Source: Candidatus Saccharibacteria bacterium CPR2
GTDB taxonomy: Bacteria > Patescibacteriota > Saccharimonadia > Saccharimonadales > QWHN01
Reading direction: 5' to 3'
Length of the DNA stretch: 64,000 nucleotides
NCBI GenBank assembly: GCA_021404905.1
Contig: QWHN01000001.1
Location: forward strand, 2,162 to 66,161
In this document: positions 3,163 through 48,148 of the stretch, piece by piece
Numbering within the stretch: the first letter of the stretch is position 1
How the letters are laid out: each line of letters begins with the position of its first letter
Translations under genes and position numbers: made by a program
Notes under the pieces: generated by a model
Database searches by the model: none
What the model saw: only the letters and a program-made list of their open reading frames with translations
Told to the model about the DNA's origin: nothing

Positions 3163-3181
3163 TTGGAGGGCCATGTGGGAT
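3163..3181. repeat. Second copy of the tRNA-Lys(CTT) 3' end (19-bp perfect direct repeat of 3334-3352)
   Basis: TTGGAGGGCCATGTGGGAT occurs at 3163-3181 and again at 3334-3352, which is inside and just past the tRNA gene. Confidence 0.9.
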
Positions 3182-3334: not shown

Positions 3335-3411
3335 TGGAGGGCCATGTGGGATTCGAACCCACGACACGCGGCTTAAGAGGCCGCTGCTCTAACCAACTGA
3401 GCTAATGGCCC
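3335..3411 (-). tRNA. tRNA-Lys (anticodon CTT), CCA encoded
   Basis: Reverse complement GGGCCATTAGCTCAGTTGGTTAGAGCAGCGGCCTCTTAAGCCGCGTGTCGTGGGTTCGAATCCCACATGGCCCTCCA. It has a 7-bp acceptor stem, anticodon loop CTCTTAA and T-loop TTCGAAT. Confidence 0.9.
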
Positions 3412-3516
3412 ACACTTCGCTCCGGTTTTACACCGGAGCTACGAGGGGCTATTTGTGCGAGGTTGGTTCTACCAACTGCTAAGCCCATCGAAGCTCGAGC
3501 GCAAGCGAGTGCGAAG
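3412..3516 (-). repeat. tRNA-Lys-associated 'U' element, copy 1 (directly upstream of tRNA-Lys(CTT))
   Basis: It shares ordered blocks CTTCGCA, AGCTTCG, GCCCCTCGTAG and CGAAGTG with 48148-48234. It contains the hairpin CTCCGG-tgtaaaa-CCGGAG. Confidence 0.6.
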
Positions 3517-3534
3517 TTGGGAGCTAATGGCCCT

Positions 3535-3648
3535 CGTCGGAATTCACTATCAGCCTCCGTTTGATCGAATATACTCACAAACTTCAGCTTCTCGTTATTC
3601 CTCCTCTCAATTAATCAAACAGCTTTGCTTGGTTTGATTAATTGTTTT
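3535..3648 (+). repeat. Modular ~110-nt tRNA-trailer element, copy 1 (homologous to 21576-21686, minus strand)
   Basis: Perfect 20-mer CGTCGGAATTCACTATCAGC (3535-3554), then a 30-nt variable block. Next comes a perfect 21-mer CAGCTTCTCGTTATTCCTCCT (3585-3605). A 13-bp hairpin CAATTAATCAAAC/GTTTGATTAATTG (3608-3644) plus TTTT follows. Confidence 0.8.
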
Positions 3649-3951
3649 AAAACTACCAGACCTCTTCCACTTATTTAAGAATCTGGTATTCCGGGAAGGG
3701 TAGCGGACTCTGTCATTTTCCGCTCTGAAACTTTATCACGTTACCCCTGTTTACGCAATAATTTCAGACTGGCTTATTTATGCAAAATTACGACCAATAA
3801 CAAGGAATTCAATGCTAGCCTCCACCCCTCTCATAACTATGTTCTAATGCGACATTATTACAAAAAATAGAAAATACCCGAGAATATTTAAGCATTATCT
3901 ACTTGCCTAATATTATAATTTTGTTATAATTTTGCAGAGAAAGGCACTAAT

Positions 3952-4164
3952 ATGGCACAAAAAGTAATTAAGATTGGTAGCTCTTTGGGCGTTACTATAC
4001 CCAAAAAGGAAGTCAGCGATCTTAATATTATAGCTGGCGATGAAGTGGAAGTAATAATTCGAAAAAAATTTAGCCGAGTTGCAAAACACGAAAAGCTACT
4101 TAAACAGCTGGAAGATTTTATGCACGTATACGATAAAGACTTAAAGAACTTGGCTAAAAGATAG
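3952..4164 (+). CDS. AbrB/MazE/SpoVT-type antitoxin (Phd-like partner of Doc)
   Basis: 70 aa with the swapped-hairpin motif IKIGSSLGVTIPKKEV. The stop overlaps the toxin GTG start (TAGTG). Confidence 0.8.
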   Translation: MAQKVIKIGSSLGVTIPKKEVSDLNIIAGDEVEVIIRKKFSRVAKHEKLLKQLEDFMHVYDKDLKNLAKR

Positions 4165-4547
4165 TGAAATATCTTGATGCAGAAGAAATTTTACTCATCC
4201 ATCATCAGCTAATTAAGCGCTTTGGTGGTTTACACGGCACGCGAAATTTAGAACAAATAAGATCTGTAGCTATAGCCCCAGCGCAACATGTTTTTGACAA
4301 TAAACAATATAAAAGTATTTTTGACAAAGCGTCGGTGTATGCTCGAAATATTATTCTAGATCACCCATTTTATGATGGGAATAAGCGAACCGGCATTACA
4401 ACCGCCATCATGTTTCTTATGAAAAATGACTACAAATTTAGCGCCCAACCCGGGGAAATTGAAGAATTCGCATTCAAAATTGCAGTCAACAAACTGGGTA
4501 TTAAAGAAATATCAACTTGGCTTGAGAAACACGTGTCCTCAGTTTAG
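4164..4547 (+). CDS. doc: Doc (death-on-curing) / Fic-family toxin
   Basis: Doc/Fic motif HPFYDGNKRTG. Size of 127 aa and position downstream of a small AbrB-type antitoxin fit the family. Confidence 0.9.
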   Translation: MKYLDAEEILLIHHQLIKRFGGLHGTRNLEQIRSVAIAPAQHVFDNKQYKSIFDKASVYARNIILDHPFYDGNKRTGITTAIMFLMKNDYKFSAQPGEIEEFAFKIAVNKLGIKEISTWLEKHVSSV

Positions 4548-8462: not shown

Positions 8463-8581
8463 TTCGATTCTTTATAATGGAATTTAGCCCAATGTTACTA
8501 CATACATCCCTCAGGAATCACAAGCAGAATCCTGGGAAAATGTCATGTTATACTGGCTTGGCGAAGTTGCGTAGGGTAAAA

Positions 8582-9316
8582 ATGGGGGTATTGAGCATGT
8601 CAGAGTTATCGGCGAATGAACGCATTATTTTAGCAATTGACACTTCGGGCATAGAAGAGGCTGAAAGATTGATGAGTTTGGCCAAAGATATCGGATCAAA
8701 ATTTGTCAAATGTGGCCTCGAGCTCTCAAGTACTATTGGTTGGCAGGGTTGTTCTGAATTGGCAGCTGAGAAAAACTTAGAATGGGTTGCTGATGCAAAG
8801 TTGGATGATATCCCAAACACGGTAGCTAAAACGGTGAGAAATATTGGATCTCTCGACCATGCGCCATTTGGAATCACCATACACACAACGTCAGGCATAG
8901 AGGCAATGAGAGTTGCTCAGGAAGAAGCAGATTCTATCAAAATGCTTGGTGTTACCGTTTTGACGTCTATCACGGATGAAGAGGCGCGCAGGCTGTATCG
9001 AGTGCCGGTAAGACAAAAGGTGATAGAGCTGGCTTATGATGCTGTAGATGCTGGGATTAAAGGTATAGTTTCGTCCCCGCTTGAGGTGGGCTTGATCAAG
9101 AACAAACCAAAAACCTCAAACCTGTTTGCTATGATCCCTGGAACACGTTCGAGCAGTGCTGACGTTCAAGATCAGGCGCGGGTTGGTACGCCAAGCGCGG
9201 CAATTAGAGATGGTGCAGATCTTTTAGTGGTCGGGCGGCAAATTACGCAAGCAGAAAATCCCACTGAGGCTTTTGAGGAGCTAATAGAAGAAATTAAAAG
9301 CTCCATCCATGAATAA
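8582..9316 (+). CDS. pyrF: Orotidine 5'-phosphate decarboxylase
   Basis: IILAIDT...KCGLEL...DAKLDDIPNTV and C-terminal LVVGRQIT motifs. The start is moved to the internal ATG at 8582, which follows a TGTTATACT -10-like box and an AGGG; the track ORF begins at 8477. Confidence 0.85.
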   Translation: MGVLSMSELSANERIILAIDTSGIEEAERLMSLAKDIGSKFVKCGLELSSTIGWQGCSELAAEKNLEWVADAKLDDIPNTVAKTVRNIGSLDHAPFGITIHTTSGIEAMRVAQEEADSIKMLGVTVLTSITDEEARRLYRVPVRQKVIELAYDAVDAGIKGIVSSPLEVGLIKNKPKTSNLFAMIPGTRSSSADVQDQARVGTPSAAIRDGADLLVVGRQITQAENPTEAFEELIEEIKSSIHE

Positions 9317-9944
9317 TAGAGACGCAAATCATGAGAATTTAATTCGAGAAATGCTCGATAATGACATTGTTAAATTTGGCAATTTTACTTTAAAAAATGG
9401 TAGACAGTCCGTGGCTTACGTAAACTTGCGAGACATGATTTCTATCCCGAGTTTATTTAGGCAAGCAACTTCTGCCTATGCAGACACTTTGGGGAAATCT
9501 GGCTTAATGAATAAACCCGATGGATCGATGAGATTCCTTGCCGGTATCCCTGAAGCTGTTGTTTATTATGCAGGTGCTGTGGCTGAAAAAATTAATGCGC
9601 CCCTGCTGCAACGTAGAGTAAAAGCAAAGGAACACGGTCAACCAAGAGCCGTTGAGGGTCGTTTCAAAAGAGGCGATGAAGTAGTGCTCCTTGACGATGT
9701 AATAACAACTGCGAGCTCTAAATTGGAAGAAGTGTCTGCTCTTGGCGAATTTGGGCTTAGAGTAACGGGAGTTACCGTTTTAGTGGATCGCCAGCAAGGC
9801 GGCAGCAAAGAATTGAAAGCGCATGACCTGGATTTCGCGACAGTTTTAACTCTTGGAGAGATCGCAAGCTACGCGTATGAAAATAATTTGGCTAACATGA
9901 CTCAAACTTTGTACGATGATCTGCTCGGTGAACTTAATACTTAA
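9309..9944 (+). CDS. pyrE: Orotate phosphoribosyltransferase
   Basis: PRPP-binding loop VVLLDDVITTASS. Overlaps pyrF by 8 nt. Confidence 0.85.
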   Translation: MNNRDANHENLIREMLDNDIVKFGNFTLKNGRQSVAYVNLRDMISIPSLFRQATSAYADTLGKSGLMNKPDGSMRFLAGIPEAVVYYAGAVAEKINAPLLQRRVKAKEHGQPRAVEGRFKRGDEVVLLDDVITTASSKLEEVSALGEFGLRVTGVTVLVDRQQGGSKELKAHDLDFATVLTLGEIASYAYENNLANMTQTLYDDLLGELNT

Positions 9945-10493: not shown

Positions 10494-10570
10494 TGGCGCC
10501 CGAGGAGGGATTCGAACCCCCGACACCTGGTTCCGAAGACCAGTGCTCTAATCCGCTGAGCTACTCGGGC
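10494..10570 (-). tRNA. tRNA-Arg (anticodon TCG), CCA encoded
   Basis: Reverse complement GCCCGAGTAGCTCAGCGGATTAGAGCACTGGTCTTCGGAACCAGGTGTCGGGGGTTCGAATCCCTCCTCGGGCGCCA. Anticodon loop CTTCGGA. Confidence 0.9.
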
Positions 10571-19973: not shown

Positions 19974-20092
19974 ATGACAAATACACTATATCATCTGTTA
20001 CTATAAATCAATAAACGGTCGATTGGATGCTTTTTGGCTGAACATTAGCAAATGTGCTACACTTTCGAGTATAAAACATAAGAATTTTGCTT

Positions 20093-21562
20093 ATGGAAAA
20101 AGAAGAAAATAGCAACAACGGCGGTTCTAAAATTACAGTAAAAAGCTCCAGTGATGAGAAAACTGCGTCCAGTGACAATAATAAACCAACGCCCGTAGAT
20201 GACGAGTTGCTTGGTACTATAAATCTGAAAGATTTACCCCAAGACGAAAAAACTGATAGCGAAAATACTCCTGAAAACGAACCGATAAAAATCACTAATA
20301 GTAATAGTAAGCCTCCAAAATCCAAATCCGGCAAGGGTAAAAAATTTTTAATTTTGTTTTTAATTTTGTTGCTACTGGGGGGCGGGGCAGCTGCGGCGTG
20401 GTGGTTCTATTTTAAGAAACAAAATACAGGCCAAAACGCTCAAACATCAACAGACACTACAAGCCAGCAACAACAGGCTGAAAATGCCTACAAAATGCAA
20501 AAAGCGGTTCAAATTATCTACGCTCATGGCGGTGAAATTGACGCGCCTGGCTTAATTTATTCACGACCTGCAACTGGAGGCGAGCGCAAAGAAATCGCTT
20601 CTGTTGAGAAGCTCGGTGGTGTTGCCGCGCAATATCGAACGGGGTCTTCTTATGTTTATTTAGACGGCAAGAATAGTGAGCCAACCCAAATATGGCTTTC
20701 TAAAGGAGAAGAGGTCCCCAAAAAAGTGCATGAACTTTCAGGGTCTTCATCAATAATTTTGAGTGTGGTTTTAAGTAAAAACGAAAAAACCATTTACTAT
20801 TCAAAAATTCCAAACCCCTATTCAACTGGTGTAGGAGGAGTTGGAACAAGTAAACTCTACAAGCTCGGCGTTGATGGCGGCAAGGAAGAAGAACTTGGCA
20901 CAGTTGAATCTAGCGCAGCATTTCTTTATGCGGTGTCAAAAGACGAATCAAAATTGCTGGTGGCTAAAGGCTGTTATGCATGTGATGGCGCTCCAGGTGC
21001 TCCCGAAATTTTTACAATCGCGGATAAAAAGCTTAGCAAAACATTTGAAATGGAAGCCAATAGTTTTGGGGCATTTTCAATTAAGCCGGATTTTTCTAAA
21101 ATCGTTTATGTTGAAAATACCGTAGACAAAAGCAAAACCGAAGACGGTTTGCTGGGATATTACGCTGGTCCGCCCCACAAAATTCATCTGCTGGATTTAG
21201 GCAACAAGGAAGATAAAGTCATCGCAACTGTTGGTGAAAAGTTAGGCAGTAGTTTGGATAGCACCTTTACGCCACAAGTGGGCTGGGGGCAAACCGAATC
21301 AAGTTTTGAACCATATTTCACTAGTGAGAAAAAGGTCTCACTTTATGACACCAGCTCACAAAAAGAATCTGTCTTATTCGAGTCAACTACAAAAGCCGTT
21401 GAGAAAGTTTATTGGGTAAGCACAAAAGAAGTGATTGTTGGCATAAAGGCTGATGAAGTTGGCGGAATGACGATAGATCACTATGACGTCAGTGCCAAAA
21501 AAGCCGATAACATAATGGAAACAACAGACTTGACCAAAATCCTTGGGTTGATAGTTGAATAG
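20093..21562 (+). CDS. Membrane-anchored extracytoplasmic protein, function unknown
   Basis: Disordered S/N/K/E-rich N-terminus, one TM (FLILFLILLLLGGGAAAAWWFYF), then a ~370-aa beta-rich ectodomain. No family recognised. Confidence 0.6.
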   Translation: MEKEENSNNGGSKITVKSSSDEKTASSDNNKPTPVDDELLGTINLKDLPQDEKTDSENTPENEPIKITNSNSKPPKSKSGKGKKFLILFLILLLLGGGAAAAWWFYFKKQNTGQNAQTSTDTTSQQQQAENAYKMQKAVQIIYAHGGEIDAPGLIYSRPATGGERKEIASVEKLGGVAAQYRTGSSYVYLDGKNSEPTQIWLSKGEEVPKKVHELSGSSSIILSVVLSKNEKTIYYSKIPNPYSTGVGGVGTSKLYKLGVDGGKEEELGTVESSAAFLYAVSKDESKLLVAKGCYACDGAPGAPEIFTIADKKLSKTFEMEANSFGAFSIKPDFSKIVYVENTVDKSKTEDGLLGYYAGPPHKIHLLDLGNKEDKVIATVGEKLGSSLDSTFTPQVGWGQTESSFEPYFTSEKKVSLYDTSSQKESVLFESTTKAVEKVYWVSTKEVIVGIKADEVGGMTIDHYDVSAKKADNIMETTDLTKILGLIVE

Positions 21563-21575
21563 CTAATATTTCTAA

Positions 21576-21686
21576 CAAAGTTACAAACCAAGCGTTAGCT
21601 GTTTGTAACTTTGAAAGGAGGAATAACGAGAAGCTGGAGCAATAAAAAACATTTTTTATTGCAAAAGCTGATAGTGAATTCCGACG
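21576..21686 (-). repeat. Modular ~110-nt tRNA-trailer element, copy 2 (directly abuts the CCA end of tRNA-Gly)
   Basis: In minus-strand sense: CGTCGGAATTCACTATCAGC, then a 30-nt perfect hairpin GCAATAAAAAA/TTTTTTATTGC. CAGCTTCTCGTTATTCCTCCT follows, then the 13-bp hairpin CAAAGTTACAAAC/GTTTGTAACTTTG. Confidence 0.8.
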
Positions 21687-21761
21687 TGGTGCGAGTGGCG
21701 GGAATCGAACCCGCATCTCTTGCTTGGAAGGCAAGTATAATAGCCTTTATACAACACTCGC
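21687..21761 (-). tRNA. tRNA-Gly (anticodon TCC), CCA encoded
   Basis: Reverse complement GCGAGTGTTGTATAAAGGCTATTATACTTGCCTTCCAAGCAAGAGATGCGGGTTCGATTCCCGCCACTCGCACCA. Confidence 0.9.
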
Positions 21762-47890: not shown

Positions 47891-47967
47891 GGGCCTGTAG
47901 CTCAGTTGGTTAGAGCAGCGGCCTTTTAAGCCGCGTGTCGTGGGTTCGAATCCCACCAGGCCCTCCA
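47891..47967 (+). tRNA. tRNA-Lys (anticodon TTT), CCA encoded
   Basis: GGGCCTGTAGCTCAGTTGGTTAGAGCAGCGGCCTTTTAAGCCGCGTGTCGTGGGTTCGAATCCCACCAGGCCCTCCA. Confidence 0.9.
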
Positions 47968-48127: not shown

Positions 48128-48148
48128 ATCCCACCAGGCCCTCCACGC
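48128..48148. repeat. Second copy of the tRNA-Lys(TTT) 3' end (21-bp perfect direct repeat of 47950-47970)
   Basis: ATCCCACCAGGCCCTCCACGC is present at both positions. Confidence 0.9.

Follow-up and report, generated by a model that had tools for sequence, protein, structure and literature searches.

The 64-kb stretch of Candidatus Saccharibacteria bacterium CPR2 analysed here (the window; 64,000 nucleotides of contig QWHN01000001.1, to which the coordinates below refer unless another locus is named) carries two copies of an intergenic element of about 110 nucleotides (nt), one close to tRNA-Lys(CTT) and one directly beside tRNA-Gly(TCC). The ClpB homologue of the window has 62% identity to that of two "Candidatus Saccharimonadales" metagenome-assembled genomes. 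Our analysis shows that the hairpin structure of this element is real and constrained, and suggests a small family of structured modules, of which three copies are known. Each of the three lies flush with the end of a tRNA gene or of a tRNA fragment and turns the same side towards it. The module possibly acts as a processed RNA within longer, tRNA-bearing transcripts; its main rival as an explanation is a mobile element that inserts at tRNA borders.

In Saccharibacteria and the candidate phyla radiation (CPR) genomes are tiny, with little conserved non-coding sequence and hardly any known regulatory RNAs. The element could reveal an undescribed coupling of RNA processing or stability to tRNA maturation; alternatively, insertion specific to tRNA borders could help to account for the frequent rearrangement of these genomes at tRNA junctions. 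With three copies, it is a lead rather than a result.

Anatomy and covariation of the two window copies

The Lys-side copy spans 3535-3644 and the Gly-side copy 21576-21686; the two are inverted relative to each other and lie 18.1 kb apart. As the sequence-only reading had described, they share a 20-mer (CGTCGGAATTCACTATCAGC; 3535-3554 (+) and 21667-21686 (-)) and a 21-mer (CAGCTTCTCGTTATTCCTCCT; 3585-3605 (+) and 21616-21636 (-)), which are separated in both copies by exactly 30 nt of unrelated sequence with an identity of only ~9/30. Each block occurs exactly twice in the window, even with up to three mismatches allowed, where no match is expected and none was found in 100 shuffled sequences. 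All 41 block positions are identical between the copies, and the identity runs 3 nt beyond the limit noted earlier (CC[T/A]CGTCGG).

Folding showed that the 20-mer pairs with the 21-mer (GGAAU/AUUCC, AC/GU and AGC/GCU) to form the base of a long hairpin, stem-loop 2 (SL2, or P1), with the variable 30-nt stretch as its tip. This tip, too, folds as a hairpin in each window copy, the first five pairs being in register and four of them covarying: the Gly-side tip (21637-21666 (+)) forms a 10-bp hairpin (GCAATAAAAA/TTTTTATTGC), and the Lys-side tip (3555-3584 (-)) has a 5-bp hairpin of its own (GTTTG/CAAAC) in the same register. The second hairpin, SL1 (or P2), has a stem of 13 bp, three of them G-C, and occupies 3608-3644 (-) in the Lys-side copy (arms 3608-3620/3632-3644, loop of 11 nt) and 21576-21613 (+) in the Gly-side copy (arms 21601-21613/21576-21588, loop of 12 nt). 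Comparison of the copies bore out the earlier observation that its stems differ at five positions, each compensated on the other arm, around similar loops.

In the two-hairpin model both window copies form every one of the 28 pairs; nine are compensated, and none is one-sided or broken. When the 3' partners were slid by 1-3 columns as a control, pairing fell to 29-50%. Folding z-scores of the element range from -4.3 to -8.2. The sequence between the blocks is essentially saturated between the copies, yet its length, register and pairing are kept. The 41 identical block positions and the saturated but paired tip thus indicate a constraint on sequence in the base and junction and a constraint on structure elsewhere. 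Judged from these alignments, the pattern of divergence does not look like that of a recent copy, nor like neutral decay. The earlier view of a modular element whose structure is selected beyond its sequence therefore stands, given nine compensated pairs, none broken, and a distant third copy (see below) that keeps the register of the 13-bp hairpin.

A coding reading was rejected: of the frames worked out by hand, none stays open in both copies and has a plausible start codon.

A third copy and the probable strand of action

A covariance model built from the two window copies (R1) matched a third copy at 3837-3966 (-) of L012 (23.8 bits, E ~1e-4), which belongs to the Saccharimonadales metagenome-assembled genome JAYRIP01 (L-numbers designate loci of other contigs or lineages). 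This copy lies inside the spacer between tRNA-Gly and tRNA-Arg(TCT), its SL2 side flush with the 5' end of tRNA-Arg, and shows the same two-hairpin fold with the 13-bp hairpin in exact register. Among the non-redundant loci scanned at that stage (the window, L011-L014, L021-L023, L025 and L027), the motif TCCTYTCA-N6-CAAACAG...CTTGRTTTG with identical spacing was confined to the three element copies. Homology of the L012 copy to the window copies is likely, but not certain.

The pairs of both window copies are all Watson-Crick and by themselves give no indication of the strand. The 13-bp hairpin of L012 does: its first and its last pair are U.G when read in the tRNA sense and C.A in the orientation used by the sequence-only reading (hereafter the first strand). 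Across the three copies, a 15-pair model of SL1 has 45 of 45 cells paired on the tRNA-sense strand, including the two U.G, versus 43 of 45 on the first strand. A further site is position 21/52, just inside the AGC/GCU helix, which is U-A in the Gly-side copy and, in the Lys-side copy, C.A on the first strand or U.G on the opposite one. Predicted folding energies on the opposite versus the first strand are -32.9 versus -23.5 kcal/mol for the Lys-side copy, -41.3 versus -34.9 kcal/mol for the Gly-side copy and -52.4 versus -41.2 kcal/mol for the L012 copy. The three wobble-versus-mismatch sites and the three folding energies are thin evidence, but they consistently favour the opposite strand, and the element probably acts from it, i.e., from the minus strand at the Lys locus and the plus strand at the Gly locus. 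An RNA on the tRNA-Gly trailer strand, as proposed earlier, was not borne out, since C.A mismatches arise there and all three copies fold more weakly.

Read on the opposite strand, the element has the order 5'-SL1-UGA(A/G)AG-GA-[SL2]-GA-CG-N-3'. The flanks of the SL1 loop are conserved (CAAAY-CAAG...CU-GUUUG), and the junction UGAAAG-GA...GA-CG is conserved across lineages. The 21-mer provides one strand of the SL2 base together with the purine-rich junction and reads AGGAGGAAUAACGAGAAGCUG on the minus strand at 3585-3605 and on the plus strand at 21616-21636, where UGAA precedes it. The other strand of the base comes from the 20-mer, which reads GCUGAUAGUGAAUUCCGACG on the minus strand of the Lys-side copy (3535-3554), GACG tail included, and which adjoins the CCA end of tRNA-Gly in the Gly-side copy (21667-21686 (+)). 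SL2 is a long irregular hairpin with 64-69 nt between its closing G and C. Its base combines the closing G-C pair with a predicted tandem GA/GA, both conserved between the window copies and L012; the base sequence is conserved within one genome, and the tip varies freely and is always paired.

tRNA borders and patchy distribution

All three copies meet their tRNA gene end or tRNA fragment with the same SL2 side, the junctions being ACCA/CGTCGG, GCCC-T/CGTCGG and GGGC-A/CGTCAG (slash at the border). In two of the three, the element directly precedes a tRNA 5' end, in the sense orientation of the tRNA, rather than following a tRNA.

At the Gly locus the 20-mer directly follows the CCA of tRNA-Gly (21687-21761 (-)), as had been claimed. 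On the opposite strand, the element starts 13 nt past the stop codon of a lineage-specific open reading frame (ORF) of 491 amino acids (20087-21562 (+)), which has an N-terminal hydrophobic stretch and belongs to no Pfam family, and it runs into the antisense tRNA-Gly. A PEBP gene follows the module on the same strand without a good promoter between them; its best homologue, at L051, is not syntenic. We considered the 491-aa ORF as a transposase and rejected it, because it has no Pfam or PDB relative, carries an N-terminal hydrophobic stretch and left no remnant at the Lys locus (tblastn).

The Lys-side copy lies in a divergent intergenic region. The sequence before it, ATGGCCCT, had been taken for a piece of the acceptor stem of tRNA-Lys(CTT) (3335-3411 (-)). 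It is indeed a fragment of this tRNA, but not of the 3' acceptor: it is an antisense piece of the 5' end, on the opposite strand, and is part of a 13-nt exact copy (GAGCTAATGGCCC, 3521-3533; GGGCCATTAGCTC on the minus strand) of the antisense tRNA-Lys(CTT) 5' end at 3399-3411. The 13-nt copy is 1 nt away from the element. Between the copies at 3399-3411 and 3521-3533 lies a 109-nt insert (3412-3520 (-)) with ~55% GC versus 40% GC for the genome. The simplest history suggested by this arrangement is that the element once directly adjoined tRNA-Lys; the insert probably came later and displaced it.

The 109-nt insert folds strongly on its own (-49.6 kcal/mol, z = -3.6) and holds a degenerate second copy of a tRNA 5' half (GGGCTTAGCAGTTGGTAGAACC). 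Downstream of each of the two tRNA-Lys genes, a 17-nt exact copy of the gene's own 3' end recurs 154-161 nt further on (TCCCACATGGCCCTCCA and TCCCACCAGGCCCTCCA; 3164-3180 versus 3335-3351 (-) and 47951-47967 versus 48129-48145 (+)). These copies resemble att-type integration scars with almost nothing left between them. On the other side of the Lys-side element, 300 nt of non-coding sequence (3645-3951) separate it from a toxin-antitoxin pair (phd/doc) at 3952-4547 (+), i.e., ~300 nt away, which encodes a MazE/AbrB-type antitoxin (70 amino acids) and a Fic/Doc toxin (127 amino acids) and is preceded by a strong promoter-like site at 3903-3930.

In L012, the spacer has no TATAAT promoter of the kind that precedes the other tRNAs of this locus. 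Co-transcription of the element with both tRNAs is therefore expected, in the tRNA sense and ending 1 nt before tRNA-Arg.

Beyond these three, R1 found no further copy in the window or in ~10 kb of additional flank, leaving 2 copies in ~74 kb of genome, and neither R1 nor a second covariance model (R2) matched in eight further Saccharimonadales lineages reached via sortase homologues. The exact 20-mer had no match in collections of genome, metagenome and viral contigs, the exact 21-mer none in the metagenome and viral contig collections, and a degenerate SL1 motif none in viral contigs. BLAST of the 540-nt Lys-side intergenic region returned no phage or plasmid match. The element is invariant in ~20 same-species Logan contigs that are 99.2-100% identical to the window; as strain polymorphisms are clustered elsewhere, this invariance says little about constraint.

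Relatives show the sites without the element. L011, the closest reachable relative, whose version of the 491-aa ORF has 71% amino acid identity, lacks both tRNA-Gly and the element downstream of this ORF. The spacer between tRNA-Gly and tRNA-Arg(TCT) measures 194 nt in L012 (3771-3964), 24 nt in L013 (4473-4495), 5 nt in L022 (5563-5567) and 1 nt in L041 (7586) and L045. The L013 sortase is 80% identical to that of L012, yet the L013 site is empty. In the window, the spacer (19974-21686) is filled by the element and the 491-aa ORF, and at the L031 junction (8467-9450) a different gene, AAA_18, is inserted. The case named in the sequence-only reading as one that would refute it, with only the two window copies and none in relatives, is thus half borne out: the syntenic sites that could be examined are empty, but a diverged copy is present in another lineage. 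This patchy distribution suggests gain and loss by insertion or recombination at tRNA borders.

As an observation in its own right, the tRNA-Gly/tRNA-Arg(TCT) junction is a recurrent insertion hotspot across Saccharimonadales.

Candidate functions and rival explanations

From the anatomy, the covariation, the strand bias, the flush positions at tRNA ends and the empty sites in relatives, we tentatively favour a structured RNA module that is carried in longer transcripts, abuts the tRNA or mirror-tRNA that follows with its GACG-N end, and serves as a leader or spacer RNA after processing; we regard this as a fair working possibility that falls short of being probable. In order, the module would comprise SL1, the purine-rich junction UGA(A/G)AG-GA, SL2 and the GACG-N tail, which would lead into a cloverleaf: the 5' end of tRNA-Arg in L012, and the tRNA-Lys 5' fragment or the antisense (mirror) tRNA-Gly in the window. 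No convincing promoter was found inside the element on either strand, and the module, having neither promoter nor terminator of its own, would be transcribed within the tRNA-Gly/tRNA-Arg polycistron, a tRNA-Lys leader or the 3' untranslated region after the 491-aa ORF. An RNase P cut at the neighbouring cloverleaf would set its 3' end. The two stable hairpins would protect the module or the flanking RNA, possibly with additional protection from 30S binding to a Shine-Dalgarno (SD)-like tract, as in STAB-SD. The outcome would be a "punctuation" module for processing and stability, or a stable RNA of ~115 nt. Transcription, processing by RNase P and any effect on stability or the ribosome are what we infer here; RNase Y is encoded in the window.

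Small RNAs processed next to tRNAs include the bacterial 3'ETS-leuZ trailer small RNA (sRNA), the tRNA-snoRNA dicistrons of plants and archaea, and MALAT1-mascRNA, in which an RNase P cut at a tRNA-like fold makes the 3' end of the upstream RNA. The element is like them in being a small structured RNA beside a tRNA or cloverleaf, without a promoter or terminator of its own, one end of which would be set by tRNA enzymes. It is unlike them in that no common sequence or fold exists, the module in most cases precedes the tRNA and in one faces an antisense tRNA, and processing is here only proposed. That the element is a bacterial counterpart of MALAT1-mascRNA, lacking a 3'-end signal of its own and matured by RNase P at the tRNA or mirror-tRNA, or else a new kind of hairpin element that finds tRNA borders by their cloverleaf ends and not by a sequence, appears unlikely to us.

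The comparison with STAB-SD, the 5' mRNA stabiliser of Bacillus thuringiensis cry3A, rests on its being a non-initiating SD-like sequence (PMC4113751). The element likewise has what appears to be an untranslated SD-like purine tract (UGAAAGGAGGAA in the Gly-side copy) without a usable start codon, in an organism with RNase Y-type decay. Unlike STAB-SD, it lies beside tRNAs and not at an mRNA 5' end, and its tract is placed between two conserved hairpins and predicted to pair in part (GGAAU in the SL2 base, tandem GA). The SD-like tracts are GAAAGGAGG in the Gly-side copy, which we take to be the exact STAB-SD sequence, GAGAGGAGG in the Lys-side copy and GAAAGGAAGAGG in L012, where the SD match is weaker (GAAAGGAAGAGGGAG). 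No start codon lies at a usable distance from the tract, its frames are not conserved, and it is partly paired in the predicted fold.

Several points weigh against a leader or spacer RNA. The element is missing from most sampled Saccharimonadales, which rules out a general requirement for tRNA maturation. The wobble argument for the strand rests on three sites, and with three known copies the covariation statistics are thin, so that function can be inferred only. With a structured helix 2 nt away from the site of cleavage, RNase P could be impeded instead of assisted. At the Lys locus, the 109-nt insert now stands between the module and the complete tRNA, and a promoter scan gave only weak minus-strand candidates. 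The Gly-side copy adjoins a tRNA 3' end in the opposite orientation, and a leader model therefore needs either an antisense cloverleaf or genome compaction there.

The main rival, which is possible though rather doubtful, is a non-autonomous mobile element or the conserved end of inserted DNA, whose hairpins would form in single-stranded DNA, be kept for recognition by a transposase or recombinase acting in trans, and direct insertion to the borders of tRNA genes. It would account for three copies flush with three different tRNAs and facing them with the same side, and for a Gly-Arg spacer that some lineages have filled and others have left empty. Both window copies border on lineage-specific DNA on its tRNA-proximal side (the Gly-side copy on the 491-aa ORF, the Lys-side copy on the phd/doc pair), the tRNA-end duplications around both tRNA-Lys genes show border recombination, and hairpins in single-stranded DNA tolerate G.T wobble just as RNA does. 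A Y1 (HUH) transposase is also encoded in the same species just outside the window (contigs L025-L027 and L030). However, direct reading of the sequence reveals neither terminal inverted repeats nor a target-site duplication, and the flanks have no tetranucleotide in common. Perfect blocks with saturation elsewhere within one genome are unlike recent transposition, and two copies in ~74 kb are few. The genes next to the two copies include no integrase or transposase, and the stretch that separates the copies holds housekeeping genes; phage and plasmid collections and viral contigs gave no match. The mobile-element and RNA-module readings are not mutually exclusive.

A miniature inverted-repeat transposable element would be bounded by inverted repeats and a target-site duplication, but the ends CGTCGGAATTC... 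and ...GATTAATTG or ...GTAACTTTG show no inverted-repeat relation, and the flanks carry no duplication. Outside the conserved blocks, the two copies in 64 kb plus ~10 kb of flank have drifted apart. REP/REPIN elements with their RAYT (Y1) transposases and the IS200/IS605-derived PATEs offer a likeness of form: short dispersed intergenic hairpins with stems kept by compensating changes, in a species that encodes a palindrome-flanked Y1 transposase. This Y1_Tnp gene (L025 17007-17639, 210 amino acids, IS200/RAYT-like) is flanked on both sides by the palindrome TTTCCAAGGAC-N-GTCCTTGGAAA, which is unrelated to the element and has no match in the window. The element's two hairpins are, unlike those of REP elements and PATEs, dissimilar and unrelated in sequence, its copy number is low, and its 5' flanks (ACCA, CCCT and GGCA) share no motif, i.e., no target tetranucleotide is conserved. 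Independently of this comparison, L025 16947-17672, situated ~6.2-6.9 kb beyond position 1 of the window, is an instance of a RAYT/REP-like arrangement from a CPR bacterium.

Integron attC sites resemble the element as hairpins with a conserved, imperfectly paired base and a variable palindromic tip that would fold in one specific strand. The best matches to the R''/R' consensus RYYYAAC/GTTRRRY, GAATAAC and GTGAATT, nevertheless reach only 5/7 each, the copies are isolated beside tRNAs, and neither an integrase among the annotated neighbours nor an attI site or cassette array accompanies them. With regard to an att-bounded island, repeats of tRNA ends do occur (17 nt at each of the two tRNA-Lys genes, 13 nt from the 5' end of tRNA-Lys), though not at the borders of the element; none exists for tRNA-Gly, and the annotated neighbouring genes include no integrase.

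A second rival keeps the orientation of the sequence-only reading and sees a tRNA 3'-trailer sRNA like 3'ETS-leuZ, whose single-stranded linker CCUCCUUUC would mimic the 16S anti-Shine-Dalgarno tail and pair with the ribosome-binding sites of mRNAs. The Gly locus invites this idea, as the element there directly follows the CCA, downstream of a good tRNA-Gly promoter (promoter-like site 21805-21777, TTCATA-17-TG-TATAAT) and with no terminator between. The linker UCCUCCU(U/C)UC is unpaired in the predicted fold of the first strand, and its pyrimidine tract is kept in L012 as CUCUUCCUUUC. The trailer position, on the tRNA-sense strand and directly downstream, nevertheless holds for only one of three copies, the Gly-side one; the other two, at the Lys locus and in L012, lie antisense to the adjacent tRNA or upstream of it. 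More precisely, the L012 copy would be antisense to the tRNA polycistron, and the Lys-side copy has no promoter-like site on the first strand, where everything upstream is antisense to minus-strand genes. Together with the three wobble sites that become C.A and the poorer folding of all three copies on this strand, these points make a trailer sRNA improbable.

It is very unlikely that the element is an ordinary duplicated intergenic stretch whose hairpins are bidirectional terminators between convergent genes. The Gly-side copy does lie between convergent units, tRNA-Gly and the 491-aa ORF, and UUUU follows the 13-bp hairpin in the Lys-side copy. However, a terminator scan called none at either window locus, the Lys-side copy lies in a divergent and not a convergent region, and the stems are AT-rich with 11-12-nt loops and no proper U tract, so that the notion of a merely shared terminator had to be dropped. 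The 3' tails on the first strand are UUUUAAAA (Lys-side copy) and UUAGAAAU (Gly-side copy, without a U tract), and the opposite strand has no U tract at all. Canonical terminators of the same genomes differ, with a GC-rich stem and a U tract after other tRNAs, and terminator function leaves perfect conservation of 41 nt beside saturated sequence unexplained. Least probable of all, to the point of being hardly credible, is a DNA-level site for protein binding or recombination, e.g. for inversion of the 18-kb segment, which the inverted copies 18.1 kb apart with perfect 20-21-nt blocks and the synteny breakpoint at the tRNA-Gly region among relatives might suggest, but for which the flanking genes include no recombinase, compensated hairpin changes and a strand bias are unexpected in a duplex binding site, and the strain contigs crossing either copy all have the window flanks, with no inversion isomers seen.

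A search against Rfam 15 brought only tRNAs to the gathering threshold in the window, with far sub-threshold chance matches besides (window loci at E<=10, L012 at E<=5); no catalogued RNA family matches the element. The element contains a hammerhead-like CUGAUAG and a boxA-like CUUUGAAA, but Rfam gave no hammerhead match. It fails the tested defining features of the 3'-trailer sRNA, attC and REP families. By analogy, it would come closest in function to tRNA-linked processed RNAs and SD-like stabilisers and in form, to some degree, to attC and REP. We class it as a tRNA-linked structured RNA or intergenic hairpin module in an unusual position.

Some further features of tRNA loci emerged along the way. 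In several Saccharimonadales, tRNA trailers start with CCA-AUGA(A/G)A...hairpin...UUUUCAUUGG (L012 4042-4080; L022 downstream of 5369; L023 downstream of 15950 and of 818), a sequence by which the terminator stem pairs with the encoded CCA end. L023 also carries a partial tRNA-Arg copy just upstream of tRNA-Arg(TCT). Finally, the whole anticodon stem of tRNA-Arg(TCG) is swapped between the window (10494-10570) and L025 (211-287), fully compensated (ACTGGTCTTCGGAACCAGG versus GTCGCGCTTCGGACGCGAA) and with the same anticodon, in strains that are 99.6-99.7% identical overall; the differences between strains fall in tight clusters, which suggests recombination tracts.

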